Below, piece by piece: positions 24,069-41,829 of a DNA stretch of 64,000 nucleotides. The notes under the pieces were generated by a model, which saw nothing but the letters and a program-made list of their open reading frames with translations, had not been told where the DNA came from and ran no database searches. Position 1 is the stretch's first letter; each line of letters begins with the position of its first letter. A program made the translations under genes and the position numbers. The DNA is from an uncultured virus (IMG/VR IMGVR_UViG_3300049445_000078) (taxonomy: Duplodnaviria > Heunggongvirae > Uroviricota > Caudoviricetes), in the IMG/VR virus record IMGVR_UViG_3300049445_000078. One strand, 5' to 3'.

Positions 24069-24070
24069 GG

Positions 24071-24289: not shown

Positions 24290-24292
24290 AGA

Positions 24293-26767: not shown

Positions 26768-26771
26768 TTAT

Positions 26772-29219
26772 TTACGTTGGATATAACGGCAAATTGGCCG
26801 ATGGAGAAACATAACGCATATCGTCTTCCCGAGCCAGAGAACTCTCGTCTCGCCTGAGCGCAAAGCCTTGATCGCGAAGATACCTTAGTCCCATGCTGAC
26901 TGCATCACAGTTATGGACTAGCACACCATTGGCATAATAGCACTTAGCTTCCTCCACGCTTAGATTGAATACTGGCCGCAAATCGTGGATGAATATATCG
27001 GCTTTTACCGCGTTTGAACTCACTTGATTGCTCACAACATCTCGTAGAGCAGAACTTTCTAGTTGATAATTTATATTCAAATCTATCCCCGCACCAAATA
27101 CATTCTTTTGTTCCTTTAACTCTAAATACCCAAGTTCTACTAGGCTTTTGGATACTTTGCTTGGCGTGCTGACGATGCCATTCGATCCCCTCTGGGGAAG
27201 AATGCCAAGCCTTTGTAAGTGGTCTAATACGTTCCAAATGAGCAAGCTGTCGCTCTGTATCAATCTTTTTAGGCATACTGCGATGCACGCGCTTCGGTAG
27301 GCACTCCAGATTTTCAAAGCGGCAATCGAAGGTATCACCGTTCTTGTGATGAATTTCGTGACCCTCTGGGATATCCAACCCTGAAAAGTGCTCCCAAATC
27401 GCGACATGAAGCCCTTTGGCTTTCTTTCTGTCAGCATTTCTTGTTGCTTGAGAGAGATAGTATTTTCTCTTTCCACCCATTCTTCGATAGGTTTGTCCAT
27501 TGAAATCAACGATTTCTGGCGGATTGTCCGGATCAAGTCGCATAGATTGAACCTCACTAATTGTTCCAGTGAGATACTATCCATTCTCATGAAGCCAGAA
27601 TCAAGAGAAAAAACGGGGTGGTTTCCCGTCCCGGTCAATGGGCCAACATTGATAACCTGACGCCAGCCAGTGAACCCATGACCTGTGACTCGTCGCCAGC
27701 CCAGTGGGGTTATCACCTCATCATCATCCAAAATCTGCTCAATAGGAATCGAGCCGCGCCGAGTAGAGATTTGGGTTCCAGCGACGAGACAAAGATCGTC
27801 ATGTGATCCTTTCGGAAAGACCGAGACCTGATCGATCACCATATCGGCCCATGCCTTGTCGGGAGCATAGACCATCTCATCCGCGAAGATGTGCTGGATG
27901 CTGTGAACCCTTGAGACCTTATCGCCATACTTCTTCGGGTCTATGGCATCTATCCCAAACTTCCCGGAAGCCCCGATAAGACGGTAAATCTCCTGCGCCA
28001 CAGACAGACCACTAGCCTTTCCCTCAATGAGAAGCCGGTCTATCGGGAAGCTGGGATAGTCCTTCGGAGCCATCGAAATTGTACAGGTTCCAATAACCCT
28101 TTGAACTAACTCATTAAATTGGAGCCTTTCTTGCCACGCATGGACGAGCATGATCTTGGGGTTGTTATTGGCATCTCGAAAGACCCCTAATATGACTAAG
28201 GCACTGGGATCATTCTCTTTTTTCTCGGTATAGGCGGTATCCAAAGACCCTAGAATGTACTCGAAATTGGGGTATTTATCGTCTTCCCACAGTTGCCAGA
28301 AGTGTCGCTTGATAATAGACCCACCTCTAGGCTCCGGCGACTGCTGGTACTGACCAGCCCAAGCGTATTCGCCCTTATCCCTTTGTAAGTCCTGAACAAT
28401 TTGCTCTGGAAACCGCTCTGGCCATGCCAATTCCCCATCATCAATACGGGGGTCTTCCCACAGGACCGTCGAGCAGTGGCGGGCGGTATCATGGTACATT
28501 GGTATCATAAGGTGTGTGTAACCCATCTCCCGACTCAGGGCGATACCGCTCACGTCATCCTCATGGGTCCTCTGCTGGATGACTACGATGGAACTTTCGG
28601 CCTGATTATTCAGTCGGTCGGGCATGACTTCCGTAAACCACATATTCGTGGTGGCCCGGACGGCCTCCGATTCCATCTCCATGGGGTTATTCGGATCGTC
28701 TATTATTACGATATCGGCTCGCTCGCCTGTACCTATACCCCCTACCGAGGTAGCGAGCTTCCATCCAGTCTGGTCATTGGCAAACTTGATCTTGGTAAAC
28801 TGCTCGTTGGAAATCCCGAATCTCTTGCCCCACAAAGCCTTGTAGCGGTCGCTGATAACGATGTTGCGGCATCGCATATTATCTCGTTCTGTCAAATGGT
28901 TAGAGTATGCGGCACACATGAACCGGGTCCATGGTCTGTTACATGGCCCCCAAATCCAGGCAGGCCAGAACACATCGGTCAGGAGCGATTTTGAGAAGCC
29001 GGGGGGCACGTTTATCAACAATCTTCGTATGTGCCCATCTGTAACAGCTTCAAGGTGGTCGCAGATGGCTTCCATGGCCCATCCCCGGACCATAGGGATA
29101 GCCGGTTCCACTACCGGCCAAACGTACTCGGCAAAGTCGATCAGGCTCTCCTCGTATATCTCCCGCTCCTTAAGGCGCTTGATGCCAGCAATGGCGTTCT
29201 TGAGGATGATGCCGTTCAT
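26772..29219 (-). CDS. terL: Terminase large subunit containing a 294-aa intein
   Basis: LLINVPPGFSKS Walker A, IIDDP Walker B, SLDTAY and IEGKASG nuclease motifs; the HDDL|CDA motif is split by the intein. Likely start ATG 29219. Confidence 0.95.
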   Translation of the reverse strand: MNGIILKNAIAGIKRLKEREIYEESLIDFAEYVWPVVEPAIPMVRGWAMEAICDHLEAVTDGHIRRLLINVPPGFSKSLLTDVFWPAWIWGPCNRPWTRFMCAAYSNHLTERDNMRCRNIVISDRYKALWGKRFGISNEQFTKIKFANDQTGWKLATSVGGIGTGERADIVIIDDPNNPMEMESEAVRATTNMWFTEVMPDRLNNQAESSIVVIQQRTHEDDVSGIALSREMGYTHLMIPMYHDTARHCSTVLWEDPRIDDGELAWPERFPEQIVQDLQRDKGEYAWAGQYQQSPEPRGGSIIKRHFWQLWEDDKYPNFEYILGSLDTAYTEKKENDPSALVILGVFRDANNNPKIMLVHAWQERLQFNELVQRVIGTCTISMAPKDYPSFPIDRLLIEGKASGLSVAQEIYRLIGASGKFGIDAIDPKKYGDKVSRVHSIQHIFADEMVYAPDKAWADMVIDQVSVFPKGSHDDLCLVAGTQISTRRGSIPIEQILDDDEVITPLGWRRVTGHGFTGWRQVINVGPLTGTGNHPVFSLDSGFMRMDSISLEQLVRFNLCDLIRTIRQKSLISMDKPIEEWVERENTISLKQQEMLTERKPKGFMSRFGSTFQGWISQRVTKFITRTVIPSIAALKIWSAYRSACIAVCLKRLIQSDSLLIWNVLDHLQRLGILPQRGSNGIVSTPSKVSKSLVELGYLELKEQKNVFGAGIDLNINYQLESSALRDVVSNQVSSNAVKADIFIHDLRPVFNLSVEEAKCYYANGVLVHNCDAVSMGLRYLRDQGFALRRDESSLAREDDMRYVSPSANLPLYPT
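26910..27791 (-). mobile_element. Intein (Hint domain) in the TerL nuclease motif
   Basis: Block A CLVAGTQISTRRG, block B LTGTGNHPVF, block F VFNLSVE, block G YYANGVLVHN followed by Cys+1; 882 nt in frame. Confidence 0.93.
26944..27543 (-). CDS. HNH endonuclease nested in an alternative frame inside the intein
   Basis: LHVAIWE...EIHHKNGDTFDCRFENLECL HNH motif; CIWC...FCSTRC Zn finger; GAGGT 7 nt before its ATG. Confidence 0.88.
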   Translation of the reverse strand: MRLDPDNPPEIVDFNGQTYRRMGGKRKYYLSQATRNADRKKAKGLHVAIWEHFSGLDIPEGHEIHHKNGDTFDCRFENLECLPKRVHRSMPKKIDTERQLAHLERIRPLTKAWHSSPEGIEWHRQHAKQSIQKPSRTWVFRVKGTKECIWCGDRFEYKLSTRKFCSTRCCEQSSEFKRGKSRYIHPRFAASIQSKRGGS

Positions 29220-29297
29220 AAAAATATTTATCCCCGACCGTGCAAAACTAAAGAATAATGGTTGTGGTCGTTTTAAGCAACATCCTATCACATAGGA

Positions 29298-29606
29298 ATG
29301 CACTTCGGAATTCTCGAACCCCACGAATACGTCATCAAGCGGCTGCATGAACTGCAACCTGCCGAGAAGTACATCTACTTCACCGGCTTCCTTGAGGAAA
29401 TGAGACTGAAGGACAGAAACGTAAACGCCATTGCTTCAACCGCCTATCACCTCATGGAACGCGGTCTCATCATCCTTACCCAGAAACGAATCAGCCTGCC
29501 AATCTCATATACCGGAACCGTCAGTTGGGTTTTTGGTATGGGGAAAGGATTTTCCTACATAGCTATCGGGAAGTTGCCGAAAAAGAAATCAGCCAATTGG
29601 ATGTAG
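29298..29606 (+). CDS. Hypothetical protein, first ORF of the divergent operon
   Basis: 102 aa ORF heading a tightly packed plus-strand run. Confidence 0.55.
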   Translation: MHFGILEPHEYVIKRLHELQPAEKYIYFTGFLEEMRLKDRNVNAIASTAYHLMERGLIILTQKRISLPISYTGTVSWVFGMGKGFSYIAIGKLPKKKSANWM

Positions 29607-29618
29607 AGGAGCAACTGC

Positions 29619-29816
29619 ATGGCTTTTATTTACCAATGTGAACGATGCCTTTCCTACTTAAAAGATATTGGTCACATAAAGCGTATCGAAATTGATTTGA
29701 TCTCGGGCGAAGGGGGCGAAGGAAGTGCTCATCTGGAAGAGGAAGGAATGTTTTGTCTCACCTGTGCGCCTGACGTTTTAGCAGAGCTAAAGGGCATTAT
29801 GAGACGCGAGAAATAG
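29619..29816 (+). CDS. Small Zn-finger protein
   Basis: CERC...CLTC; GAGGAG RBS. Confidence 0.6.
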   Translation: MAFIYQCERCLSYLKDIGHIKRIEIDLISGEGGEGSAHLEEEGMFCLTCAPDVLAELKGIMRREK

Positions 29817-29825
29817 GAGAATATC

Positions 29826-29993
29826 TTGACCAGAGATGATTTTGAAGAACTCGAAAAACAAGTCATGAAGGAAGTGGTGAGGCGACGAAGCTTGGGAGGC
29901 TACTCTGTAGAAGCAGAAGGAGTTCTGTTTCTATCTGAGTGTATGCTTAAGATAGTCCGACATCTCCACGAACAAATACCACGAAAAAAATGA
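29826..29993 (+). CDS. Small hypothetical protein (55 aa, TTG start; not in track)
   Basis: AGGAG RBS; its stop overlaps the next start as ATGA. Confidence 0.55.
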   Translation: MTRDDFEELEKQVMKEVVRRRSLGGYSVEAEGVLFLSECMLKIVRHLHEQIPRKK

Positions 29994-30484
29994 TCGTCAC
30001 CAGACGGCTGACACTGGTGCCACCTTCGGATGAGTCAATTCCGAAGATGGTGGAGTGGTTGAATGATCCTGATGTGACGAGATACTCCGAACAGCGACAT
30101 CAAAAACATACGGTTCCCTTCCAGCGAATCTACATCGGCATGATGACTCGCCCCCATAAGTACCTAGAAATCCGCACCAACGACACCATCATCGGGACAA
30201 TTACCGCCCATGTGGACCCCTATAACGATGTGGCTGATGTAGGAATCATGATTGGAGAGAAATCGTTGTGGGGAAAGGGCTATGGCGCAGAGGCATGGCA
30301 AGCCTTCTGCGATTACCTACTCGGCAATGGAATTCGTAAGGTGGAGTGCGGATGTATGAATATCAATTTCGGTATGAAACATATCTGTCGAAAGACAGGG
30401 ATGAATTACGAAGGGCGCAGGTTTGCCCACTTCCTTGTAGGGGAAGATACCGTGGACATGCTTTATTTCGGACGTTTCCGATGA
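29990..30484 (+). CDS. GNAT N-acetyltransferase (RimL/PseH-like)
   Basis: EWLNDPDVTRYSEQR and VGIMIGEKSLWGKGYGAEAW motifs; sugar-pathway context. Confidence 0.8.
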   Translation: MIVTRRLTLVPPSDESIPKMVEWLNDPDVTRYSEQRHQKHTVPFQRIYIGMMTRPHKYLEIRTNDTIIGTITAHVDPYNDVADVGIMIGEKSLWGKGYGAEAWQAFCDYLLGNGIRKVECGCMNINFGMKHICRKTGMNYEGRRFAHFLVGEDTVDMLYFGRFR

Positions 30485-30696
30485 AAAGCCCATTGAGAAT
30501 AACATTTCCAAAGTTTCTTTGGATAGAAATACACATTCCTAAATGGCAATGGAAAATTGAACGGGAGATAAACCATTTTACCGGCCACCGATGGTCCGTT
30601 TGCTTAGGGTGGGTATGGATATCTTGGTACAATTTCAAAGAGAACAAAGATTACTATAACAGAATTGAAGAGAGTCGCAAAAGAGGGTGGTGTTAA
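30481..30696 (+). CDS. Small Trp-rich hypothetical protein
   Basis: ATGA overlap with the GNAT stop; begins MKSPLRITFPK. Confidence 0.5.
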   Translation: MKSPLRITFPKFLWIEIHIPKWQWKIEREINHFTGHRWSVCLGWVWISWYNFKENKDYYNRIEESRKRGWC

Positions 30697-30697
30697 A

Positions 30698-31285
30698 GTG
30701 AAACAGGCTGATGTTTTCTACCACTCTGAAGGTGCTTGCTGGCTTGCAAGAAACGAAGAAAAACTAACCGGCATTGATGATCCGGTAATGGCTGCCATCA
30801 AGGATGCCAAGATCAAACCGAATTCAGTTCTGGAAATTGGCTGCTCCAATGGCTGGCGCTTAAAGCTGCTGGAGAAGAAATACAAGTGCGCGACTACTGG
30901 CGTTGAACCTGCCGCAATCGGGACAGGAAACATCCTGCGCGGAACTGCGGATAACCTACCAATCAAACACCTCACATTTGATGTCGTGATCTATGGATGG
31001 TGCCTCTATCTCTGTGACAGGGAGGACTTGTTCAAGATTGCAGCGGAAGGAGACCGTGTTCTTCAGGAGGATGGCTATCTCATCGTCTACGATTTCTTTT
31101 CCAACAAGCCATATCAACGAGCATACAAACACCATCCGGGAATCTTCAGCTACAAGATGGACCATTCCCTGATTTGGCTGGCAAATCCTGCCTATAGGCT
31201 CATGCAAAGAACCATGATCGATGATGAAACGGCTATAACAATCCTACATAAGGATACAGCGCACGGATGGCCGCTCAATGACTAA
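30698..31285 (+). CDS. Class I SAM-dependent methyltransferase
   Basis: VLEIGCSNG, TGVEP and FDVVIYGWCLY motifs; likely GTG start at 30698. Confidence 0.85.
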   Translation: MKQADVFYHSEGACWLARNEEKLTGIDDPVMAAIKDAKIKPNSVLEIGCSNGWRLKLLEKKYKCATTGVEPAAIGTGNILRGTADNLPIKHLTFDVVIYGWCLYLCDREDLFKIAAEGDRVLQEDGYLIVYDFFSNKPYQRAYKHHPGIFSYKMDHSLIWLANPAYRLMQRTMIDDETAITILHKDTAHGWPLND

Positions 31286-32168
31286 GACCATTGGTGTCAT
31301 CGGCCTTGGGTCCATCGGGACTAGGCACAAAACCAATCTCTGGAAAGAGTTGGGGCAGACCGAGGTTATTGGTTATGACCCGGACCCGACCAAGCAAAAC
31401 GGGACGGGATGGGTCATCGGTGACTTGGATAAGATGATTGAGATGTCCGACATTCTAATCATCGCCAGTCCAACTCCTAATCACTATGAGCATCTGGTCA
31501 AGGCGTGCATGACCAACAAGCCTATCTTCATTGAGAAGCCAATAGCCGATACCCCTGCTGTCCACCATCTCACCCACCTTATAGCAACCCGCCCCTTCAT
31601 GGTGGGCTACAATCTTCGATTCCATTCCTGTGTAAAGAAGGCGAAGGAATGGATGAATGAGATTGGCAAACCACTCTGGGCCAACATCACCCTTGGACAA
31701 CATAGCGAGAAACCACCCTATGTTCGAGACGGCGTTATTCTCAACTGGAGCCATGAAATTGATCTTGCCCTGTATCTCCTTGGGCCTGGGCACGTTCTTA
31801 CTTCTTCTACTCGCGTTAGTAACGGAAAGGATGATGTCAGTGACATCTTACTCCAGCACAATTCTGGATGCAGATCGCTGGTTCACCTCGACTACGTTAC
31901 ACGACCAGAAATCCGGCAAACATTAATCGTCGGCTCCAAAGCAACAATCATCATTGATTTGGTTAATCGCATGGCGTGGTTACGAGGTTCTGACGATGTA
32001 ATACTAGATCAGTTCCAAGGTCTGGACACTTGGCAGATGAATTATGTGGAAGAGATGCAGGAATTTCTCGGTCTGTGCGACGGTGAGAAATCTATAGGTT
32101 GTACTGGGAAAGAAGCATTAGCAGTTCTCGATATTTGTCTCGAAGTAAGAAAGCAGGCTGGATTATGA
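31278..32168 (+). CDS. Gfo/Idh/MocA NAD-dependent oxidoreductase
   Basis: GVIGLGSIG, IFIEKP, VGYNLRFH and SHEIDL motifs. Confidence 0.9.
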   Translation: MTKTIGVIGLGSIGTRHKTNLWKELGQTEVIGYDPDPTKQNGTGWVIGDLDKMIEMSDILIIASPTPNHYEHLVKACMTNKPIFIEKPIADTPAVHHLTHLIATRPFMVGYNLRFHSCVKKAKEWMNEIGKPLWANITLGQHSEKPPYVRDGVILNWSHEIDLALYLLGPGHVLTSSTRVSNGKDDVSDILLQHNSGCRSLVHLDYVTRPEIRQTLIVGSKATIIIDLVNRMAWLRGSDDVILDQFQGLDTWQMNYVEEMQEFLGLCDGEKSIGCTGKEALAVLDICLEVRKQAGL

Positions 32169-34177
32169 AGGTTTTAGCAATTTGTCAGGCTAGAATGGGT
32201 TCCACCCGCGTACCAGGAAAGGTTATGCGGAGACTTGGTAACAAACCTGTATTGAGGTGGACTCTCGATGCGGTAGAAAAGGCTGAATTAGTTGATGATT
32301 TTGTTCTGGCAACGTCAACCGATACCGCTGATGATGTCATAGAACAATACTGCGATGAAAATAATCTAGAATGCTTCCGAGGAAGTGAGACGGATGTTCT
32401 TGATCGATATTATCAGTGTGCGAAGAAGCATCATGCCGACATCGTATTACGGTTTACCTGCGATTGCCCTTTCCTTGATCCTGGAGTTATCAACGAAGTC
32501 ATCAAACTTAGGGACATGACGAATGCGGATTACGCCTCAAATTGCTATCCGCCTACTTATCCTGACGGTCTTGATACTGAGTGCTTTACCTTTGCTGCCT
32601 TGGAGGCAGCTTGGAATGAAGCAAAAAGTCAGGTCGATAGGGATTGCTGCACGCAATTCATTGTTCGCAACCGTGACCGTTTCAAGGTGGTTAACCTAAC
32701 CTGCCCCCTCCCTGGTTTAGATAAGGAACGATGGGTTCTTGATACCGAAGATGACTGGAGGCTATGCCAAGGCATAGTATCCCATCTTACCAAGTTTTCC
32801 TATCCAGAAATTCTATCGTGCCTAGACGAAAATCCAAAGATTAGGGAACTCAACGCTGGGGGCATACGCAATGAGCGATTCTATGAAGCATTGGCGGAAG
32901 AGAGACTATCCCCACGAACATTTGAGCGGTCTACCAGAGTATTCCAAAGAGCAATACAGACCATACCGGGAGGGGCACAAACCTACAGCAAGAGCCACAT
33001 CCAGTTTCCGACCGGGGCTGCGCCACTATGTGTTTCTTACGGTGATGGTGCTTACATCTTTGATCTCGATGGTAATAGGTATCTTGATCTTATTAACGGT
33101 ATTTGTCCTGTCATTCTTGGGTATGGCGATCCGGACGTTAATGAAGCCATTCGCAGGCAACTCGACAACGGCATCAGCTTCTCGCTCGCAACCAAGATCG
33201 AAACCGAACTCTCCGAACTCCTCTGTCACCACATCCCCTGCGCCGAAATGGTCAAGCTGGGAAAGTCCGGAACAGATGTAACAACGGCAGCAGTGAGGTT
33301 AGCGCGTGCTTATACTGGTCGCGATCATGTCCTCTTATCTGGATATCACGGTTGGAGTGATTGGTCTATCGCTTGCACTGATCGCAATCATGGTGTTCCA
33401 GAGGACGTAAGGCATCTTACACACCGCATTCCTTATGGTGATGACCCGAATGTAAATAGGCCACCGTTTCCGTGGGCTCATACAGTCGCGGCAATTATAG
33501 TAGAACCAAACGATAACCCAGAATATCTCAAAGGTTTACGAGAACATTGTACCAAGCATGGTATCGTTCTCATCTTTGACGAAATCATCACCGGATTCCG
33601 CTACGACCTTGGCGGCGCACAGAAGCTGTACGGTGTAACACCCGATCTCGCCTGCTTCGGCAAGGCCATGGCGAACGGAATGCCTATTTCTGCCCTCGTC
33701 GGTAAGCGTAACATCATGAAGATGATGGAATCGCCGGATGTATTCTACTCCGGCACCTTTTTCGGTGAGACACTTTCCATTGCAGCAGCTATTGCAACAA
33801 TCAAGAAACTGGAGCGCGAGAAGGTCATTCCCTACCTGTACGAGATGGGGACTAAGGTCATCAATCTCATTGGTGAACTGATCGATTCCGAGGAGATAAA
33901 CGACTTTGTTTCCATCAGCGGCAACCCAACCAAATCGACCATCTCATTCAAAGGAGAACATGCCGGAAAACTGAGAACCCTCTTTATCCGAGAAATGATC
34001 CAGCAAGGCGTTCTGATTATGGCGACCAATACGATGTCGTATGCACACAAGAAACCAGAAATACAGCGCATCTTCAAGGCATACGATCATACCTTATCTG
34101 TATTAAAGGAGTCATTAATGGATGGCTCCATTGAGAAGATAGAGCCCACACAAGCTGCACCGTTGAGGGCAGCATGA
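32165..34177 (+). CDS. SpsF/PseF-type cytidylyltransferase fused to a class III PLP aminotransferase
   Basis: QARMGSTRVPGKV and RFTCDCPFLDP (CMP-sugar synthetase); LIFDEIITGFR and FGKAMANGMP (class III aminotransferase). Start ATG 32165. Confidence 0.9.
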   Translation: MKVLAICQARMGSTRVPGKVMRRLGNKPVLRWTLDAVEKAELVDDFVLATSTDTADDVIEQYCDENNLECFRGSETDVLDRYYQCAKKHHADIVLRFTCDCPFLDPGVINEVIKLRDMTNADYASNCYPPTYPDGLDTECFTFAALEAAWNEAKSQVDRDCCTQFIVRNRDRFKVVNLTCPLPGLDKERWVLDTEDDWRLCQGIVSHLTKFSYPEILSCLDENPKIRELNAGGIRNERFYEALAEERLSPRTFERSTRVFQRAIQTIPGGAQTYSKSHIQFPTGAAPLCVSYGDGAYIFDLDGNRYLDLINGICPVILGYGDPDVNEAIRRQLDNGISFSLATKIETELSELLCHHIPCAEMVKLGKSGTDVTTAAVRLARAYTGRDHVLLSGYHGWSDWSIACTDRNHGVPEDVRHLTHRIPYGDDPNVNRPPFPWAHTVAAIIVEPNDNPEYLKGLREHCTKHGIVLIFDEIITGFRYDLGGAQKLYGVTPDLACFGKAMANGMPISALVGKRNIMKMMESPDVFYSGTFFGETLSIAAAIATIKKLEREKVIPYLYEMGTKVINLIGELIDSEEINDFVSISGNPTKSTISFKGEHAGKLRTLFIREMIQQGVLIMATNTMSYAHKKPEIQRIFKAYDHTLSVLKESLMDGSIEKIEPTQAAPLRAA

Positions 34178-35118
34178 AGAACGTCCTAATTACAGGAGGC
34201 ACCGGGAGCTTTGGCAATGCCTTTGTTCGCAGACTTCTGGCGTCACATAAACCGGAACGTATCGTCATCTATTCAAGAGATGAACAGAAACAGGAAGAGA
34301 TGGCTCGTAGCCTTGCTCATCTTGATCGCAATTCTGTTCTTCGATTTTTCATTGGGGATGTACGGGACCGTGATCGCCTTGAGTTTGGGCTTCATGGCAT
34401 CGATACTGTTATTCATGCTGCTGCCCTAAAGATTGTTCCAGTTTTAGAATACAATCCGACTGAGTGCATCGCCACTAACATCGGAGGAGCGGAAAATGTC
34501 GTCAGAGCCAGCATTAGAGCGGGCGTTAAAAGAGTCATTGCACTATCGACGGATAAGGCAGTCAATCCTATCAATCTATACGGTGCATCGAAGCTTGCAG
34601 CAGAAAAGGTCTTTATCGCAGCGAATTCTCTCGCAGCCGGAAGTACTCTCTTTAGCGTTGTCAGGTATGGCAACGTTGCTGGCTCTCGGGGTAGCGTTAT
34701 TCCTTATTTCCGGAAACTTGCCTTAGAGGGAAAGCCGCTCACCGTAACTCACCCTGATATGACCCGGTTCCACATCACTCTAGATCAGGCCATCGATTTA
34801 GTACTGACTTGTCACAATAATATGAAAGGCAGGGAAATCTATATTCCAAAAATTCCATCCTTTAGGATACTCGATCTGGTAAGTGCCTTCGATAAAATTG
34901 GCGTAGAGATTGGCATCAGACCCGGAGAGAAGATTAACGAGTGTTTGATGACCGAGGATGAGTCCCGCCATGCCTTCGATCTTTCCACCTTCTACATGAT
35001 CCGAGAAACCAAGGAGCGGCTTGGACTCAGGGTAAAAGAAGGTTTCAGATATGCGAGCGACACAAACTCAGAGTGGCTTAGTGTGCAACAGTTGAAGGAG
35101 ATTATCAATGCACCATAA
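34174..35118 (+). CDS. pseB: UDP-N-acetylglucosamine 4,6-dehydratase (inverting)
   Basis: ITGGTGSFG, SRDEQKQ, HAAALK, LSTDKAVNPINLYGASK, RYGNVAGSRGSV and GIRPGEK motifs. Confidence 0.9.
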   Translation: MKNVLITGGTGSFGNAFVRRLLASHKPERIVIYSRDEQKQEEMARSLAHLDRNSVLRFFIGDVRDRDRLEFGLHGIDTVIHAAALKIVPVLEYNPTECIATNIGGAENVVRASIRAGVKRVIALSTDKAVNPINLYGASKLAAEKVFIAANSLAAGSTLFSVVRYGNVAGSRGSVIPYFRKLALEGKPLTVTHPDMTRFHITLDQAIDLVLTCHNNMKGREIYIPKIPSFRILDLVSAFDKIGVEIGIRPGEKINECLMTEDESRHAFDLSTFYMIRETKERLGLRVKEGFRYASDTNSEWLSVQQLKEIINAP

Positions 35119-35425
35119 ACTCCCGGATTGGTGGATATTCGTTTTTCTTAATCCACTAACTGCGCTTGCGGCCACTGGTTTATTTGTCTGGTATCTTCAA
35201 GGAGTGGATGAGCGTTGGGATGCAGAAGAAAGAGCAGCCCTATTGACAAAGAAACAGACAATCGAAAATTCGCTACAGGGCTGCAAAATATTCAACTACG
35301 GTGACTATGGCAATGTAAGAGATTTGGTCATCGTCAAATGCGACGGAAAATCATCTGTTACAGAAAACCACATGAAGACCGTTGGGAAAATAAAGTATCA
35401 AACTACTACAGCAACCATTGAGTGA
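35108..35425 (+). CDS. Small membrane-anchored protein
   Basis: N-terminal hydrophobic helix; packed inside the sugar operon. Confidence 0.6.
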   Translation: MHHKLPDWWIFVFLNPLTALAATGLFVWYLQGVDERWDAEERAALLTKKQTIENSLQGCKIFNYGDYGNVRDLVIVKCDGKSSVTENHMKTVGKIKYQTTTATIE

Positions 35426-35434
35426 GGAAAAACA

Positions 35435-35620
35435 ATGCCTAGACTTTCCAATGAAAAGATCATCCGTCGCGTCAAGTCGATTCGGACTCGCAATAATTCC
35501 TGCTGGATGAAATTATTAGCACTGGCGGTAAAGACCAATCCAAGGAAGGCTAAGAAAATCCTCAACCAGATTTCAGCATACGACTCACAGATAGTAAAAT
35601 GGATGAAACACCTACACTAG
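35435..35620 (+). CDS. Small basic protein
   Basis: GAGG RBS; overlaps the next gene. Confidence 0.6.
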   Translation: MPRLSNEKIIRRVKSIRTRNNSCWMKLLALAVKTNPRKAKKILNQISAYDSQIVKWMKHLH

Positions 35621-36699
35621 GCCCGTTACCGCCGTTCTTTACGATAGGGCGGTCTGAGGCTACCAATGTATCTATTGCGATGCGGCATAGTTTATCTGGA
35701 TACCTCGGTGGCATTCCCCATGGTGGTTACTGGGTAGAACGGTTAGCATCCGAGTGGTGTGAGGCGTTTGGAGTCAAGCACTCGATACCGTGCAACTCGG
35801 CAACCAGCGGACTTTTGGCATCATGTCTAGCGATTGGAATTGGCCCAGGAGACTTAGTTTGGTGTCCAGGAAGCAGTATGTCTGCTACGGCTGCCTGTGC
35901 GAAGGTGTTAGGAGCACATATTGCGTTCATAGACATAGAGACGATTCGTTTCTCGATCAACATGAACAACTTCGGGAGTATCCGCCCGAAGGCTATTATT
36001 GTGACGAACTTATTTGGACATCCAGCCTATCTAAAGACCATGCGTTCCTGGTGCGACTCCAATAGAGTGTGGATGATTGAGGATAATGCGCAATCTCCTT
36101 TTGCCAAAGAAGGCGACCAGTATGCAGGAACCATCGGACACATCGGGGTCTTCAGCCTTAACGTTCATAAGCACATCCAAACAGGCGAAGGAGGCGTTAT
36201 TGTCACGAACGATGACGCTTTGGGGGATCGACTACGGGGCGCGATCAATCATGGAGAGTTGGGAAATTCTGGTCAGGCAGGGCTCAATCTCAGAATCACC
36301 GAGCCGATTGCGAGCATTGCTAGTGCTCAGTTAGACAAGGCCCCCGCTATTATGCGTGGACGCATTGCTCTGGCCCTCGAAGTCATCGATATGTTCGATC
36401 TCCCGTGGCTTATTGTACCACAACGTCCAGACTTGGGCTGCACCCATTCCTATTACATTGCCGCATTCAGAGTTATGGATGGCAAGAGACAGCAAATCCT
36501 CGATAGGCTGTGGAAGAGAAGTTTCCCGATGCGTAAGGGATACTCACCTACCTTGAATCGAGTCTTTGGCGGCAAGTCATGTCCTGTAGCCGAGAGACTT
36601 GAGGATGAGGAGTTAATGACGTTCGAGGTGTGCGCTTATGATCCATCCTCTTGGCATCTTAGACAGATGCGAGAGATAGCAAAGTGGGCTGTCGAATGA
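35599..36699 (+). CDS. DegT/DnrJ/EryC1/StrS aminotransferase (PseC-like)
   Basis: CNSATSGL, IEDNAQS and FSLNVHKHIQTGEGG motifs. Confidence 0.88.
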   Translation: MDETPTLGPLPPFFTIGRSEATNVSIAMRHSLSGYLGGIPHGGYWVERLASEWCEAFGVKHSIPCNSATSGLLASCLAIGIGPGDLVWCPGSSMSATAACAKVLGAHIAFIDIETIRFSINMNNFGSIRPKAIIVTNLFGHPAYLKTMRSWCDSNRVWMIEDNAQSPFAKEGDQYAGTIGHIGVFSLNVHKHIQTGEGGVIVTNDDALGDRLRGAINHGELGNSGQAGLNLRITEPIASIASAQLDKAPAIMRGRIALALEVIDMFDLPWLIVPQRPDLGCTHSYYIAAFRVMDGKRQQILDRLWKRSFPMRKGYSPTLNRVFGGKSCPVAERLEDEELMTFEVCAYDPSSWHLRQMREIAKWAVE

Positions 36700-37709
36700 C
36701 CTACTTTATCGCGGATATAGCGAGTAACCATGATGGCTCTCTCGATAGAGCCAAGGAACTTATCAAACTGTGTGCGGAATCCGGAGCGCATTGTGCCAAG
36801 TTCCAGCACTTCAAGGCGGAATCCATTGTCAGTGCCGAGGGCTTCAAGTCTCTCAAGATCGCTCATCAGGCCAAGTGGGAGAAGCCGGTCTTTGAAACCT
36901 ATCAGGATTATAGCCTGAATAGAGAGTGGAATTCGGTATTGGCAGAGACGGCTAATGGATGTGGCATCGACTTCATGACCACACCCTATGACTTTGAGGC
37001 GGTCGATCAGGTCTATGATCTGGTTCCTGGATACAAGATAGGCTCAGGGGACATCACCTATCTTCAGTTAATCGAATACATCGCCAAGAAGGGAAAGCCA
37101 GTCTATCTCGCTACTGGAGCCTCAACAATGGAAGAGGTAGAGCGAGCGGTTGAAGCTGTGCTTAAACATAACCCGCATCTATGCCTCTTGCAATGTAATA
37201 CCAACTATACGGGGGATGAGGAGAACTTCAAATATGTCAATCTTAACGTTCTGCATTCATATAGATTACATTGGCCTTCAGTCATTCTCGGCCTTAGCGA
37301 TCATACCCATGGGTCATCTACTGCGCTTGGTGCTGTTGCACTGGGGGCCAAAGTCATTGAAAAACATTTTACTGACGACGCAACAAGAATAGGTCCGGAT
37401 CACGCCTTTGCTATGGAACCACCAGAATGGAAGTCGATGGTTAAGGCGGTAAGAGAGTTAGAACTTGCAATGGGTGACGGGGTGAAGAGAGTTGAAGCCA
37501 ATGAGGCCGAATCTGTCATCGTGCAGAGACGGGCTCTCAGGCTTAAGACCGATCACGGGAAGGAGCAAATTCATGCGGAGGATATTGAGGCACTTCGCCC
37601 ATGCCCGGATGGAGCGTTAAACCCCTCTCAGCTTGACGATGTTGTTGGTCGAACTCTAACGCATGGCCTTCCGGCAGGACGAGAAATCTATCCAGAGAAT
37701 CTTTCTTAG
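36696..37709 (+). CDS. N-acetylneuraminate/pseudaminate synthase (NeuB/PseI family) with SAF domain
   Basis: IADIASNHDG, KFQ, YKIGSGD, GLSDHT, IEKHFT and GPDHAFAMEP motifs; start ATG 36696. Confidence 0.92.
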   Translation: MTYFIADIASNHDGSLDRAKELIKLCAESGAHCAKFQHFKAESIVSAEGFKSLKIAHQAKWEKPVFETYQDYSLNREWNSVLAETANGCGIDFMTTPYDFEAVDQVYDLVPGYKIGSGDITYLQLIEYIAKKGKPVYLATGASTMEEVERAVEAVLKHNPHLCLLQCNTNYTGDEENFKYVNLNVLHSYRLHWPSVILGLSDHTHGSSTALGAVALGAKVIEKHFTDDATRIGPDHAFAMEPPEWKSMVKAVRELELAMGDGVKRVEANEAESVIVQRRALRLKTDHGKEQIHAEDIEALRPCPDGALNPSQLDDVVGRTLTHGLPAGREIYPENLS

Positions 37710-40225
37710 TGGTGCGGAATCTTTCTAGGTCTCGTCGTGTGCTTCCCATCCATCAAGGTATGGCCCATGGTGATGGCGATGGAAGGCGAAGATACTGAAC
37801 CAAGCAATCCCATATACGCCTGATACTTCGGGACAGTGGCATAATTCGTCTGATAGATATTTTCTAGTAATCCCCACTGACTTTCATTGCCAGGCAAGGA
37901 AACATCAGCATAATGATTAACAACATCATTAAATCCATTAGCTACAAATTCACCAAAATAAGTCGTATATAACGTACCCATCTGGGTACTGCGATTTGCA
38001 GCAATGGAATAATTTGTCTGATCGGTATCGGGGTGCCCAAAATCAGAGAAAGTCTGTCCGCATTCATAAGACAATAGCCGTAAGCCAAAAGTGCTAGCTG
38101 GCCCGTAAGCAGCGGCTGCTGTTGATGCCCAATCCAAACCAGGATTGATATACCCTGTGCTAGGAGGGCCGGGCCATCCTGGAAACTGAATACGCCATCC
38201 GGGTGTACCTACCGAACCGGAAGCAGTGACAGAAGTAAACACAAATGGTGTTTTATAGCCGTTGCCTATAAATCCTTGTCCAATATAGTTTGCTGGTAGT
38301 GCGGTTCCCCACCTTTCTTGTAATGGAAATGCCGTTCCTCCATCAGCAGCAAGAGTAGCGTTTGCTCCATTTGTGACACCATTAAAGTCTATATAAATGA
38401 TTGTCTGATTTGGCGGTGTGGCTGGAAGGCTTTGCCCAGATGTAACGGTATAAGCCGTCGAAGTTCCTCCCGCTATGTGCGAGGTTGACGCCGACGTTGG
38501 AAGAAGGCCGCCAGAATTGTATTCCTGATAAAACTTTGCGATACCTCCATCGCTGTCCGCTGTCCAAGCATCAGGAAGTTGTTCACCACCATTCATATAT
38601 CCGCCGATGCAAACAGCATCGAAGTGCGTATAAGCCTGTCCAGTCCAATATGATGAATTTCCACCATAATCTGTAGCAAGTCTTGGCAACATTCCCTGCG
38701 TAGGGTCTGATAAATAGGAATCGTTTGAAGCCTGCCCACCCATAACACTTATGACGCGGCTACCTAGTGCTGACTTCCAAATAGCTTGGGCCTGAATAGA
38801 ACTATACAGACCATAAAGGAAAGCTGCGTTATTGTTGTTACCTGCTGCTGTAAAAAGCACATTTCCAAGGTTTGCATAAAATGGAGTTAGAAACGCAGCT
38901 TGTGACCAAACTTCATTGGACTTTTCAACATAGACTTTCAAGTTAGAATTTAGATTTGCCGATACGAGAGCCGACGCTGTTGTGTTCCAACTAGCGTCAG
39001 CCAACGGTGGGATGTTAATCCACATATCGGCATTTTGTTCATTGCAGAGCGCACACATAGCCTCGATAGGAGGTCCACCAAAACTATGCCCGGCTCTATT
39101 AACACCAAAACCAACACCTGTACCTGCCCACATTAAATAGTCTTTGGGAGTAATATCAGAACTTGTCAAAACAATCTGACCAACCCCCGTGAAAGTACCA
39201 GAACCCCCTGAGAATGTTATGGGTGAGCCACCTAAGGATGTAGCCACCTGAAATGAATTTGCTGTCAGGCTGGCCTGTAAAACATAGTAGGCTGTTCCGA
39301 TAGTCAGCGGCGTTGGAAGCGTGCCCCCCGAATCTGGTAAAAACATAACTGTTTGGTTTGCCGCAAAACTTGCACTTGACCAACTGACGGTAGTTCCTGA
39401 AAATGTCACGGCAGAATATAATATATCAATACTATAAGTATTTTGCATCTGCATAAAGCGGATGGGAGACAGGCCCTTAAATTTTGCCGTATAATCTATA
39501 TTCCACTGCTCACCAGCCGCAAGTTGTGTAAGATATTTAGTCTGACATAATTGGATGTTTCGCGCCCAATCTCCAAATCCAGTATGAGTTCCTGAACCCC
39601 CTGAAAAGGTAATTGGTGATCCACCAGCAGTCGTTGCTATCTGAAACGAATTTGCTCCAAGGCTTGCGGCCAGGACGTAATAAACTTGATTTATATTTAT
39701 TCCTGGTAGCGTCCCCGTTGTTTGAAAAGCAACAGGAGAATCCGCCGCGAAGCTGCTTCCAGACCATGAAACTGTAGTCCCAGAAAACGTAACAGTGGCG
39801 CTGATGCCCGTTGCACTTAAAGCAACCCCGATTCCGCTCGATGTTCCAGAAGCAGTAGGAGTTACGTTCAATGTTATCGGGCTTGATGAACTGGAAGCAG
39901 TTGCGTCTCTCGTTACTGTAAATGTGCCACGTCCCTGCCATTGAAGAGTCCACGAACCTGCGCCACCAGGAAAAAGATAGGTACCCAGGTCATTTAGAGC
40001 GACAAGAACCGTATAACTGGAACTTAACGATGCTCCATCCCGCGCAATAGAATTGCTTATAGGATAACCATTCGTATCAACATTAAGATTCCATTCTTCT
40101 CCTGTTGATCCGGCTCCAGTTGATACCGTAGAGCAAATCCAGAATGGGCATGTATTTAGGATATTCAGAGTGTACTGTGCCGAGCCCCCAAAGGGCTGCG
40201 TATTGATGCCAAACTTAAGTGTCAT
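37706..40225 (-). CDS. Glycoside-hydrolase-like TIM-barrel protein with inserted beta repeats (possible depolymerase)
   Basis: IRFM, MWINIP, YVEKSNEVW, YECGQ and WGLLE motifs; two copies of a ~72 aa repeat. Confidence 0.6.
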   Translation of the reverse strand: MTLKFGINTQPFGGSAQYTLNILNTCPFWICSTVSTGAGSTGEEWNLNVDTNGYPISNSIARDGASLSSSYTVLVALNDLGTYLFPGGAGSWTLQWQGRGTFTVTRDATASSSSSPITLNVTPTASGTSSGIGVALSATGISATVTFSGTTVSWSGSSFAADSPVAFQTTGTLPGININQVYYVLAASLGANSFQIATTAGGSPITFSGGSGTHTGFGDWARNIQLCQTKYLTQLAAGEQWNIDYTAKFKGLSPIRFMQMQNTYSIDILYSAVTFSGTTVSWSSASFAANQTVMFLPDSGGTLPTPLTIGTAYYVLQASLTANSFQVATSLGGSPITFSGGSGTFTGVGQIVLTSSDITPKDYLMWAGTGVGFGVNRAGHSFGGPPIEAMCALCNEQNADMWINIPPLADASWNTTASALVSANLNSNLKVYVEKSNEVWSQAAFLTPFYANLGNVLFTAAGNNNNAAFLYGLYSSIQAQAIWKSALGSRVISVMGGQASNDSYLSDPTQGMLPRLATDYGGNSSYWTGQAYTHFDAVCIGGYMNGGEQLPDAWTADSDGGIAKFYQEYNSGGLLPTSASTSHIAGGTSTAYTVTSGQSLPATPPNQTIIYIDFNGVTNGANATLAADGGTAFPLQERWGTALPANYIGQGFIGNGYKTPFVFTSVTASGSVGTPGWRIQFPGWPGPPSTGYINPGLDWASTAAAAYGPASTFGLRLLSYECGQTFSDFGHPDTDQTNYSIAANRSTQMGTLYTTYFGEFVANGFNDVVNHYADVSLPGNESQWGLLENIYQTNYATVPKYQAYMGLLGSVSSPSIAITMGHTLMDGKHTTRPRKIPHH

Positions 40226-40239
40226 GATTTCCCATAGCT

Positions 40240-41169
40240 TTAATAATGAAATCCTGCGCTTACGGAAATCATATATTGATTGATACGGTAAGAAAATCCT
40301 GAAGACCCGGTATCTCCAGGAGCAGTAAGTCCGGCACCAACAGCGGCAGCTTGCAGTGTATCGGCTGAAATGTTGCCAACACCGCCTTGCGCTCCGATTG
40401 TTAAAGTGCTTGTCGTTGGAACTGCTGCCGAAGCATCGGTAGTAGGGCTTCCAGCAACTTCAGTACCATTATGATAAAGATGCAAATTCCCTGATGCCGT
40501 TCTATTAGTAACCCATAGACCCTGACTATTTGAACCACTTAATGACGATATAACCGCAGAGTTCAATTCAAAAGCACACCCAGGAAGTGACATATATGGA
40601 ACTATGATTGCTGAATTTCCACCTCCCGAAATACCAATTGCACAAGTATTATCGGAAGAAACTCGCGCATTAGCAACCATTGCCATTAACGATGCGCTAT
40701 TGAGTGCATACACGCCACCAAAACTAGAAAGTATTATTCCGGTATCTAAAAAATTACTGTCTGACGGAACCCCGGTATATCCCGCTGTATTAGTCCACCT
40801 AGTTGTAAAGGCTACCGATCCGGTGGAATTAAATGTCCATGTCTGTGCGTGAACAAGATCATATTTACATTCTGTCCAGGCATTTCCCCCGCTATCGGCA
40901 ATGCACAATAACCATATCCGGTCAAAAACGGTTTGCAGGGTCGAGGAACCAAGCGAGAGGCCGAAGTCGGTTTTTATGCCTTTGATGAGGGTATCGACAT
41001 AGTTCTTTTGGGTCGTGGTGACTGTGAACGGGTTGGTGCCGTCAGCGGAGACGGCGGCGACCCAGGCGGTCGTTTCCGGTTCCAGACTTCCCCCGCCAGC
41101 AGGCACCACAAAGGATGTGTCGGTCGGCCCTATGACGTAGGGCCGCACTAGTATCCGAGTATCAGACAT
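40240..41169 (-). CDS. Lectin/LamG-like protein (paralog of 8883..9707)
   Basis: YALNSAS and NRTASGNLHLYHNG motifs. Confidence 0.55.
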   Translation of the reverse strand: MSDTRILVRPYVIGPTDTSFVVPAGGGSLEPETTAWVAAVSADGTNPFTVTTTQKNYVDTLIKGIKTDFGLSLGSSTLQTVFDRIWLLCIADSGGNAWTECKYDLVHAQTWTFNSTGSVAFTTRWTNTAGYTGVPSDSNFLDTGIILSSFGGVYALNSASLMAMVANARVSSDNTCAIGISGGGNSAIIVPYMSLPGCAFELNSAVISSLSGSNSQGLWVTNRTASGNLHLYHNGTEVAGSPTTDASAAVPTTSTLTIGAQGGVGNISADTLQAAAVGAGLTAPGDTGSSGFSYRINQYMISVSAGFHY

Positions 41170-41175
41170 TGGGAC

Positions 41176-41358
41176 TTACGAGGTAGAGGTCAGGGTCGCG
41201 GTATCTGAGGCGATGGTGGTGGTGGCCGAAGCAACAGCAGCAGCCGCCGCTTCAATGGCCGTGGTGTTGCCCTTGGACGCTTGCACTGCGGCATCGAGAG
41301 CCGCTACTGCCGCCGTGAGGTTTGCGATATTGGAATTGAGGTCGTCGATGGCTGCCAT
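41176..41358 (-). CDS. Small Ala/Thr-rich coiled-coil protein
   Basis: MAAIDDLNSNIANLTAAVAAL preceded by GGAG; the start could be further upstream. Confidence 0.5.
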   Translation of the reverse strand: MAAIDDLNSNIANLTAAVAALDAAVQASKGNTTAIEAAAAAVASATTTIASDTATLTSTS

Positions 41359-41441
41359 GATAAGCTCCAGAAGTTGCCGGTCGTTGTTATGAATGAACCG
41401 CATCGTATTCCATATACACGAAAATAGGGTATACTCAAACC

Positions 41442-41639
41442 ATGAAGTACGGAGAGAAGTCACCACCGATAGGACTTGTGCAGAACGTCGATGGCGTTCA
41501 TTTCCAGTGCGGGACCTGCGAGTTCTTCAAGGATGGGGAGTGCCTGAATCCGAATCCCAAGCTGCACAGGCTCAAGGTCCATCCGGAGTGGTGCTGCAAT
41601 CTCTATAAGCATCCGAAGATGAGGACTATTGTGGACTAG
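41442..41639 (+). CDS. Small Cys-rich protein with HiPIP-like spacing
   Basis: CGTCEFF...EC...VHPEWCCNLY. Confidence 0.5.
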   Translation: MKYGEKSPPIGLVQNVDGVHFQCGTCEFFKDGECLNPNPKLHRLKVHPEWCCNLYKHPKMRTIVD

Positions 41640-41719
41640 CAGCAGTTTCCGTGACCACTGAGAAGAAGGCCGATGGCTGCGGCCATGACTATGAGGTAAA
41701 GGAGAATCCACCCCTTCAT
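41636..41719 (-). CDS. 27-aa hydrophobic peptide (not in track)
   Basis: MKGWILLYLIVMAAAIGLLLSGHGNCC; TGATG coupling to the upstream ORF. Confidence 0.45.
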   Translation of the reverse strand: MKGWILLYLIVMAAAIGLLLSGHGNCC

Positions 41720-41829
41720 CAGTGCGGGGCGTGCAGAAACTGACCGATAAAGGCTAGGACATTACTAGCTATATAAAAGCCGATGCCAAAGAACAGGCCG
41801 AACAGGAAGTTCTCAATAGCCTTTTGCAT
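41719..41829 (-). CDS. 36-aa membrane peptide (not in track)
   Basis: MQKAIENFLFGLFFGIGFYIASNVLAFIGQFLHAPH; GGAGG RBS. Confidence 0.55.
   Translation of the reverse strand: MQKAIENFLFGLFFGIGFYIASNVLAFIGQFLHAPH

Follow-up and report, generated by a model that had tools for sequence, protein, structure and literature searches.

A predicted nonulosonic acid operon in an uncultured SU10-like phage and its relation to the pseudaminic acid pathway

Nonulosonic acids are surface sugars of bacteria and animals, where they govern charge, recognition and evasion of the immune system. The Campylobacter jejuni and Helicobacter pylori enzymes PseB, PseC, PseH, PseG, PseI and PseF convert UDP-GlcNAc to CMP-pseudaminic acid, with PseH catalyzing N-acetylation of the 4-amino sugar. 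Here, we analyze a stretch of 64,000 nucleotides from an uncultured virus of the Caudoviricetes (IMG/VR record IMGVR_UViG_3300049445_000078), referred to throughout as the window. It carries an operon that, judged from its sequence, encodes the classes of enzymes that synthesis of a CMP-activated 5,7-diamino nonulosonate requires, plus additional tailoring enzymes. Literature searches returned phages only as users or degraders of nonulosonates or as carriers of single tailoring genes (prophage epaA-epaB); they yielded nothing on virion pseudaminylation, on nonulosonate pathways encoded by phages, or on tailed phages that combine an inherited pathway with a transferase of their own. A review table of marine phage auxiliary genes lists pseI, in the part available as an abbreviation only (PMC6359870).

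Several described systems share features with this operon. Prophages of Acinetobacter baumannii encode EpaA, a CTP_transf_3 domain joined to an aldo-keto reductase, and EpaB, a short-chain dehydrogenase/reductase (SDR), which convert pseudaminic acid (Pse) to 8-epi-Pse; in the accessible text, the dehydrogenase and reductase roles are deduced by the authors from the domains (PMC12053666). We read the reaction as passing through an 8-keto intermediate. Like the operon in the window, EpaA-EpaB is a phage-borne nonulosonate tailoring system in which CTP_transf_3 is fused to a keto-processing enzyme and a separate dehydrogenase acts as partner. However, the aldo-keto reductase of EpaA epimerizes and does not aminate, EpaB is an SDR and not a Gfo/Idh/MocA enzyme, and, according to the same portion of that source, the prophages carry the two tailoring genes only, need the host psaA-F genes and deliver their product to the host capsule. 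The group I polar flagellin islands of Aeromonas combine pseB, pseC, pseF and pseI with a class III aminotransferase, a reductase and methyltransferases, the aldo/keto reductase, PseF and class III aminotransferase occurring together. As in the window, subgroups ID and IE are without a PseG orthologue in the available sections. The islands have a Maf transferase nearby; they differ from the window in an unfused aminotransferase, an aldo/keto-type reductase, a chromosomal location and flagellin as the acceptor (PMC7874193). The pair is also present, unfused, in the Legionella serogroup 6 lipopolysaccharide (LPS) cluster, as far as the accessible part of PMC3694923 goes.

We propose, with a probability of about 0.6, that the operon builds a CMP-activated, tailored 5,7-diamino-3,5,7,9-tetradeoxy-nonulosonate of the pseudaminic type from host UDP-GlcNAc, and that this sugar is transferred by a GT42/Maf-fold protein, possibly to virion proteins.

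Gene content and phage ownership of the operon

Open reading frames (ORFs) were assigned to families with Pfam, PHROG and NCBIfam equivalog models and their cut-offs. The plus strand holds a block of twelve ORFs at 29298-37709 (Table 1). An earlier note on this DNA had described a tightly coupled run of seven enzyme genes at 29990-37709 with small ORFs interleaved, and both the ORFs and their Pfam domains were indeed found at these positions on the plus strand. Intergenic distances from the GNAT gene through the NeuB gene, small ORFs included, are 180, -8, -4, -4, -11, +9, -22 and -16 bases; coupling is tight, except for the 180-base gap 3' of the GNAT gene. The interleaved ORFs of 105 and 61 amino acids (aa) both lie between the PseB and DegT genes and match no family in Pfam, NCBIfam or PHROG. 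Upstream, the 55-aa leader ORF runs 4 bases into the GNAT gene. For the fused gene, the length of the public protein P0001 (670 aa) makes ATG 32165 the most likely start, ahead of TTG 32099.

The operon is inherited phage DNA and not a chimera. An alignment-based search with the fusion protein retrieved 66 related IMG/VR loci, and in 43 of them the large terminase gene terL lies upstream on the opposite strand. These 43 syntenic loci contain the genes for GNAT (43), the methyltransferase (41), the Gfo/Idh/MocA oxidoreductase (GFO, 43), the fusion (43), PseB (36), DegT (36) and NeuB (31), the missing genes falling largely at contig ends. By tblastn, the 55-aa leader ORF has matches in 18 related loci and the 102-aa leader ORF in two. 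In a FastTree phylogeny of 98 fusion proteins, from which 48 loci without a full-length ORF were excluded, a single branch with SH-like support of 100 parts 42 phage from 56 bacterial rows. Contigs from public soil and rhizosphere sequencing runs bridge both operon edges. Run X5, a run without a source flag, has one contig across 28470-30164 and one across 37012-38003, both free of differences, and run X1, a possible source, has a 35.9-kb contig that covers 26000-42000 at constant depth. A chimera was rejected because of the synteny, the single-branch split between phage and bacteria, and these bridging contigs. The GC content of the operon (0.46-0.49) is similar to that of its flanks and all its reading frames are intact. 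Bacterial counterparts were taken as the best 80 of 302 relatives, one genome per species, and none of these 80 loci has a portal or terL gene beside the fusion. Hence the operon belongs to the phage and does not represent host contamination, as the earlier note had argued; the survey of related phages and the junction coverage that it had put forward as checks both spoke in its favor.

The fusion protein has more than 120 homologues of at least 56% identity with the same fused architecture, many of them on 70-77-kb contigs. In turn, a single-protein scan of IMG/VR with the synthase of the window gave no match, nor did a search with the operon DNA against 50,697 GenBank phage records, only three of which contain a NeuB homologue. 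One further IMG/VR record, G001, is identical to window positions 20000-26883 and, apart from some 150 bases where the record itself ends, to 59172-64000. It links the end of the window to its start through 5,780 extra bases, giving a 69,780-base circle or circular permutation. Being a 37.5-kb fragment that ends at window position 26883, inside terL, it is without the operon for that reason only.

Table 1. Positions, strands and family matches of the operon genes and of other features in the window
Feature	Position	Strand	Matches and remarks
Three small leader ORFs (102, 65 and 55 aa)	29298..29993	+	head of plus-strand block; no match in Pfam or PHROG
GNAT N-acetyltransferase	29990-30484	+	Acetyltransf_3 PF13302, 69.1 bits; candidate for the PseH step
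SAM-dependent methyltransferase, putative tailoring enzyme	30665-31285	+	Methyltransf_11 PF08241, 37.1 bits
Gfo/Idh/MocA NAD-dependent oxidoreductase	31278-32168	+	GFO_IDH_MocA PF01408, 42.0 bits; C-terminal domain PF22725, 28.6 bits
Fusion of CMP-ulosonate-type cytidylyltransferase (N-terminal) and class III, glutamate-1-semialdehyde-aminomutase-like aminotransferase (C-terminal)	32165-34177	+	CTP_transf_3 PF02348, 93.2 bits, residues 27-178; Aminotran_3 PF00202, 165.3 bits, residues 309-642
PseB, inverting UDP-GlcNAc 4,6-dehydratase	34174-35118	+	Polysacc_synt_2, 316.4 bits; TIGR03589, 419.2 bits (cut-off 407.75)
105-aa ORF with N-terminal hydrophobic stretch	35108-35425	+	no family match; in 0 of 66 related loci, i.e. 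this phage only
61-aa basic protein	35435-35620	+	no family match; tblastn matches in 26 of 66 loci
DegT-family sugar aminotransferase	35599-36699	+	DegT_DnrJ_EryC1 PF01041, 143.4 bits; candidate for C4 amination of the PseB product
NeuB-family nonulosonate synthase	36684-37709	+	NeuB PF03102, 241.3 bits (gathering score 22.1)
GT42/Maf-fold protein, 293 aa, head module	15729-16610	-	no match in Pfam or PHROG; candidate CMP-nonulosonate transferase
Ser/Thr-rich head-module proteins, 213 and 332 aa	17000..19144 (17000-17641 and 18146-19144)	-	32% and 28% Ser+Thr; up to 50-53% per 40-residue window
Large terminase terL, 861 aa	26772-29357	-	phrog_38, E 9.6e-78; left flank, divergent from operon
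SU10-type portal	24293-26767	-	PF23899, 60.2 bits (cut-off 30); phrog_1216
GroES-like co-chaperonin	22926-23339	-	PF00166, 45.3 bits; between portal and head genes
839-aa protein	37706-40225	-	right flank; convergent with synthase gene, ends overlap by 4 bases; no family match
309-aa protein	40240-41169	-	right flank
Small terminase terS	42899-43423	-	phrog_51, PF03592
HNH homing-type endonuclease	7690-8166	-	phrog_99, E 1e-63; inserted in virion module
HNH homing-type endonuclease	15205-15726	-	phrog_99, E 3e-46; in virion module, immediately 3' of the GT42/Maf-like gene
Second acetyltransferase-like gene	1774-2283	-	phrog_1249, E 4.7e-7; no Pfam match; between tail-fiber gene and gene for 1122-aa tail protein with lysozyme domain
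DnaA C-terminal helix-turn-helix protein	56906-57349	-	PF08299, 64.1 bits
GcrA-like cell-cycle regulator	57352-57774	-	PF07750, 49.9 bits

Comparison with the canonical pseudaminic acid pathway

The operon is not the textbook six-enzyme Pse pathway. Like that pathway, the window has a PseB, a DegT aminotransferase, a GNAT acetyltransferase, a NeuB-family synthase and a CMP-ulosonate cytidylyltransferase, and relatives of the phage keep PseI. Unlike it, the window is without PseG, has three extra enzymes and a synthase of another subfamily, and resides on a phage. NCBIfam models were applied for PseB (TIGR03589), PseC (TIGR03588), PseH (TIGR03585), PseG (TIGR03590), PseI (TIGR03586) and PseF (TIGR03584), and PseB is the sole canonical enzyme of the window to exceed its cut-off. 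The DegT, GNAT and cytidylyltransferase proteins miss their cut-offs by a wide margin. The DegT protein reached 122.9 bits with PseC (cut-off 423.5) and 110.8 bits with LegC (cut-off 420), the GNAT protein 14.9 bits with PseH (cut-off 93.1), and the cytidylyltransferase domain alone 24.7 bits with PseF (cut-off 205.7). The best model for that domain was of the KdsB type, with 57 bits against a cut-off of 193, and its CTP_transf_3 assignment is clear by the Pfam threshold of 22.6 bits. The synthase scored 223.8 bits with PseI (cut-off 340.25) and 261 bits with NeuB_NnaB (cut-off 399.65); it belongs to the NeuB family PF03102 over its full length. A pseudaminic configuration of this phage's product is therefore putative.

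Sequence motifs were found in several of these proteins. PseB carries TGGTGSFG, STDKA and YGASK, and the DegT protein has SLNVHK...GEGG at residues 186-198, all of which we take to be catalytic or cofactor-binding motifs. In the synthase, GLSDHTHG (SDH) and EKH align with PseI 8h2c and are presumably the metal-binding histidine motifs.

No PseG-type Pfam domain was detected in window ORFs of at least 100 aa, nor in the four ORFs and one gene fragment of the 5.8 kb outside the window; a six-frame TIGR03590 scan of the window was not made. The earlier note had invoked the complete PseB-C-H-G-I-F set, and this had to be given up, PseG being absent and the candidates for PseC, PseH, PseI and PseF staying below their cut-offs. 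Its labels 'PseH-like', 'PseC-like' and 'PseI' hold at the family level, PseB alone surviving model placement as an equivalog, while its extra oxidoreductase, aminotransferase and methyltransferase beyond the canonical set are all present by Pfam. The broader statement that the phage makes its own activated sialic-acid-like sugar stands in so far as the PseB, DegT, GNAT, NeuB-family and cytidylyltransferase classes are encoded, and fails in that there is no PseG and the synthase is of another NeuB subfamily. Because PseG is absent, production of the sugar by the phage requires a host hydrolase or an unrecognized one.

The synthase appears to have a history of its own. It is 71-73% identical only to the copies of L002 and L003, two of the related loci, and 23-34% identical to those of other relatives, three of which (L011, L012 and L038) were tested and pass the PseI cut-off with 376-384 bits. 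The closest proteins to the window synthase are bacterial members of the 'N-acetylneuraminate synthase family' with 57-66% identity, which places it nearer to a bacterial homologue than any other gene of the operon. Since bacterial homologues are this unusually near and the other phage relatives so distant, we read the pattern as a probable replacement of PseI through horizontal transfer in this sub-lineage. Five Magnetospirillum genomes contained no close homologue of this synthase subfamily, the best match having 36% identity.

Tailoring enzymes, candidate transferase and proposed route

The protein encoded at the center of the operon is a member of the cytidylyltransferase-aminotransferase fusion family (PF02348+PF00202). 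It scored 364 bits with PRK06209 (cut-off 486), and its two halves matched glutamate-1-semialdehyde (GSA) aminomutase 5i92 (E 9e-68) and cytidylyltransferase 6oew (E 4.5e-34) in the Protein Data Bank (PDB). K500 lies within an FGK motif that is invariant in 20 of 20 sequences, and we take it to be the lysine that binds pyridoxal phosphate (PLP). Literature searches found no biochemical study of such a fusion. For the oxidoreductase, the nearest NCBIfam models were inositol 2-dehydrogenase (74 bits) and UDP-GlcNAc 3-dehydrogenase (65 bits), both far under cut-off; by analogy, we infer that it oxidizes a sugar hydroxyl to a carbonyl.

The 80 bacterial loci stem mostly from Alphaproteobacteria (Magnetospirillum, Xanthobacteraceae, Hyphomicrobiaceae and Rhodospirillales), and 10 of 22 genomes of the genus Magnetospirillum carry the full-length fusion. 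In these 80 loci the fusion is co-located with PseB (53), DegT (54), NeuB (58) and GFO (33), and in most of the 33 the GFO homologue starts no more than about 1 kb ahead of the fusion, on its upstream side. Pse clusters from Bradyrhizobiaceae, an alphaproteobacterial metagenome-assembled genome and Paramagnetospirillum kuznetsovii (L076, L102 and L122) resemble the window in having the same fusion at 42-52% identity, the oxidoreductase immediately upstream, and PseB and sometimes a methyltransferase adjacent. They differ in holding bona fide PseC, PseG and PseI and no phage genes, the phage copies of the fusion forming a separate clade. L076 and L102 share the order PseB-(methyltransferase)-GFO-fusion-PseC-PseG-PseI, with PseC at 471-474 bits and PseI at 501-505 bits; neither has a PseF-type enzyme, and a KdsB-like cytidylyltransferase follows downstream. 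As PseF-type enzymes are missing from these two clusters, the fusion would supply the CMP step there. In bacteria, then, it probably provides CMP activation for a complete Pse pathway plus an added step. Family GH109 enzymes use an NAD-dependent elimination mechanism. A role of the Gfo/Idh/MocA enzyme as a PseG substitute by such elimination was set aside as less likely, the bacterial clusters holding PseG in addition to this oxidoreductase; in the phage, such a role may yet apply.

As to the added step, the analogy with EpaA and EpaB leads us to think that the oxidoreductase and the class III aminotransferase probably turn a hydroxyl into an amine. With the reductase swapped for an aminotransferase, the product would be an 8-amino-8-deoxy sugar, C4 being the alternative position. 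Mass spectra of CMP-ulosonates from Magnetospirillum gryphiswaldense offer a lead in composition: the accessible part of a preprint gives ions at m/z 679.1983, 693.2139 and 707.2296 that lose ammonia on fragmentation (10.64898/2026.04.20.719630). By our arithmetic, these values correspond to a CMP-diacetyl-nonulosonate plus C2H3N, followed by the addition of one and two CH2. Replacement of OH by NH2, an acetyl and methyl groups would account for C2H3N with none to two CH2 and fits the enzyme set. Several phage relatives have a second methyltransferase, and relatives carry extra cassettes in the operon: ATP-grasp, PIG-L deacetylase and second GNAT genes in L030, ATP-grasp and deacetylase genes in L033, a formyltransferase in L058 and an RmlD-like reductase in L011. 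This gene content suggests that sub-lineages may each make a different N-acyl sugar variant.

A candidate for the final transfer is the 293-aa protein encoded in the head module. Its AF2 model has a mean pLDDT of 66.4, with 70-90 in the core. Foldseek returned CstII, Cst-I or the Pasteurella sialyltransferase PmST as the top ten PDB chains (E 2e-5 to 6e-4, TM 0.36-0.47), the best being CstII 1ro7. In the model, residues 43-209 appear to share their fold with GT42 enzymes (CstII 1ro7, Cst-I 2p56) and with Maf 5mu5; in contrast to this likeness, identity is 11-19%, there is no Pfam match and same-fold kinases tie in Z score. The protein is kept in five of five complete relatives at 62-72% identity and is encoded on 18 of 20 fusion-bearing clade contigs of at least 55 kb (17 among the best 80 of 138 relatives and one found directly); the two contigs without it are 53% and 82% complete. 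We consider it likely that this GT42/Maf-fold protein is the transferase for the sugar of the operon. Among the 50,697 GenBank phage records, one homologue was found, in Microcystis phage Mvi-Yong1342-1 (PP496355.1, 34880-35533, 28% identity, E 2e-22); it is annotated as 'type 11 methyltransferase', and the record is not one of the three that bear NeuB. The Ser/Thr-rich proteins of the head module, whose genes neighbor the GT42/Maf-like gene, are weak candidates for O-glycan acceptors.

Taken together, the route would begin with dehydration and inversion of UDP-GlcNAc by PseB, the step for which the model cut-off is passed. At the family level, C4 would then be aminated by the DegT enzyme and the new amine acetylated by the GNAT protein. 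UDP would be removed by an enzyme that cannot be recognized among the phage genes, most simply host PseG, and the free sugar condensed with phosphoenolpyruvate (PEP) by the NeuB-family synthase. Following the EpaA/EpaB analogy, the Gfo/Idh/MocA enzyme would oxidize the nonulosonate at a secondary hydroxyl, most likely that of C8, whereupon the aminotransferase domain would convert the ketone to an amine and the fused cytidylyltransferase domain would form the CMP-sugar. Methylation by the methyltransferase may follow, and the GT42/Maf-fold protein would finally move the sugar to its acceptor, possibly the Ser/Thr-rich virion proteins. A far more specific version is doubtful in its entirety: the lineage, widespread in soil and freshwater, would cap its virion proteins with an as yet undescribed tri-amino, N-methylated or N-acetylated nonulosonate (candidate 8-amino-8-deoxy pseudaminic type), the fusion channelling the 8-keto intermediate, a virus-specific family of GT42/Maf-like transferases attaching the sugar, and the swapped synthase changing the backbone in this sub-lineage.

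A number of observations weigh against the proposed route. Four of the six canonical steps (PseC, PseH, PseI and PseF) are filled by proteins under the equivalog cut-offs. PseG (TIGR03590, cut-off 153.55) was matched in none of five relatives that are 100% complete by CheckV, at E<=0.01, whereas 7 of 14 control genomes gave a match. The window DegT is closest (37-39% identity) to a second, uncharacterized DegT of L076 and L102 and not to their bona fide PseC, and the synthase sits in an uncharacterized NeuB subfamily, with a product that may differ from the pseudaminic type in stereochemistry or even in chain length. Where sugar substrates of class III enzymes have been solved, the reaction takes place at a C6' aldehyde, a group that a 9-deoxy sugar does not have; C8 is the most likely site of amination, the position itself resting on analogy. 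For the large M. gryphiswaldense ions, the preprint authors, in the part available, favor an extended carbon backbone over simply one more amine (10.64898/2026.04.20.719630), and the link between these ions and the fusion, a lead, comes from carriage at the level of the genus and not from that strain. The model of the 293-aa protein is of intermediate confidence, and its comparison by VIA does not set transferases apart from other proteins: Z is 9.9 for Maf 5mu5 (Magnetospirillum) and 9.3 for CstII, with thiamine pyrophosphokinase, HPPK and SteA level with them at 9.5-9.7.

Alternative readings, genome context and significance

The best-surviving alternative, which we regard as possible and yet unlikely, is that the operon is an auxiliary metabolic module: host glycosyltransferases would place the CMP-sugar on the surface of the infected cell (flagellin, LPS, capsule or S-layer), where it might, for instance, hide receptors or keep out superinfecting phages, and the virion would stay undecorated. 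The absence of PseG would imply reliance on a host with a Pse pathway of its own, the nearest bacterial clusters belong to flagellated Alphaproteobacteria such as Magnetospirillum, and the GcrA-like and DnaA-C-terminal regulators of the phage point to an alphaproteobacterial host. In addition, prophage epaA-epaB alter the A. baumannii capsule in this manner, as far as the source is accessible (PMC12053666). On the other hand, the phage has its own GT42/Maf-fold protein inside the head module, conserved throughout the complete relatives and on nearly all long operon-bearing contigs as given above; three Magnetospirillum genomes contained no homologue of it (one single-protein query). PHROG scans of the window proteins showed no integrase, which makes lasting lysogenic conversion unlikely.

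A split into two pathways appears improbable. Here, PseB, DegT and GNAT would yield a UDP-2,4-diamino-2,4,6-trideoxyhexose that is used directly, and the synthase, oxidoreductase and fusion would start from a different precursor and make some other CMP-ulosonate, e.g. an amino-octulosonate or an acid with a longer chain. The two halves are not linked by a UDP-sugar hydrolase, the cytidylyltransferase domain prefers the KdsB-type model (57 bits) to PseF (24.7 bits), the synthase is from an unnamed subfamily, and Kdo8N transaminase 5k8b is among the matches of the DegT protein. Longer-chain CMP-ulosonates are also reported, in the accessible part of the preprint, from a genus that carries the fusion (10.64898/2026.04.20.719630). 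Against a split stand the bacterial fusions inside complete PseB-PseC-PseG-PseI clusters without a PseF-type enzyme, the bona fide PseI (by cut-off, three tested) as synthase of most phage relatives, and the co-inheritance of the seven genes in one order.

Use of the sugar for DNA hypermodification is very improbable, no supporting gene having been seen. The least credible account of all is host DNA misassembled onto a phage contig, or captured recently and decaying: the operon is oriented opposite to the neighboring phage genes and G001 breaks about 3 kb before it, but the layout recurs in 43 of 66 loci from many samples, the phage fusion copies form one clade apart from bacteria, contigs of several runs cross both junctions at even depth, GC is as in the flanks, frames are intact, and portal and terL are missing beside the fusion in the 80 bacterial loci.

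The minus strand from 2 to 29357 forms a virion module with tail-fiber protein, SU10-type adaptors (PF24175, 72.5 and 38.8 bits, cut-off 27), major head protein (19189-20109), GroES-like protein, portal and large terminase, and by its portal and adaptors the phage is an SU10-like podophage. It probably represents a lineage of roughly 70-77 kb with Alphaproteobacteria of soil and water as hosts; the genes for the GcrA-like and DnaA-domain proteins suggest an alphaproteobacterial host whose cell cycle the phage may manipulate. The operon sits inverted between terL and terS, two genes without known function separating it from the latter. Both of these, encoding the 839-aa and 309-aa proteins, recur only in L002, at 42% and 79% identity, and may form a variable, perhaps host-specific cassette beside the operon. 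The 839-aa protein contains two copies of a repeat of about 70 residues, and structural comparison of its Atlas model points to 'cellulose-binding protein' clusters of bacteria (TM 0.54-0.58 by query), a lead toward a sugar-binding-like fold. PDB sequence searches with the 839-aa, 309-aa and 293-aa proteins gave no usable match. The second acetyltransferase-like gene could encode a further sugar-tailoring or virion-modifying enzyme.

Two additional features of the genome were observed. The C-terminal half of TerL contains an apparent intein, with TIGR01443 (intein C-terminal splicing region) at residues 795-817 (E 2.1e-5) and weak Hint_2 and Intein_splicing matches at 523-816. Between 54001 and 56000, GC falls to 0.39 from about 0.49 elsewhere, with strong negative GC skew and a helicase gene whose product has an endonuclease VII/HNH-like N-terminus; this segment may have been acquired recently.

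The enzymes of the operon are of known families, and bacterial counterparts of its core exist. Going by the literature searched, what is new is a phage as carrier, the loss of PseG throughout the clade, a virus-borne GT42/Maf-like protein as partner of the operon and, in this window, the swapped synthase. The clade-wide absence of PseG (none in five complete relatives) poses the question of host dependence or of a new UDP-sugar hydrolase. Furthermore, the operon isolates a compact, co-evolving set of oxidoreductase, fusion and methyltransferase for a putative, uncharacterized amino-nonulosonate. The bacterial counterparts in Magnetospirillum, Xanthobacteraceae and the Aeromonas-type flagellin islands have been studied just as little, so that hundreds of bacterial clusters would gain an annotation once the phage enzymes are solved. 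If the preferred reading is true, the large clade of uncultured phages would use a sialic-acid-like sugar as a coat or decoy, which would bear on how stable the particles are, how they adsorb, which hosts they infect and whether predators or immune systems recognize them.

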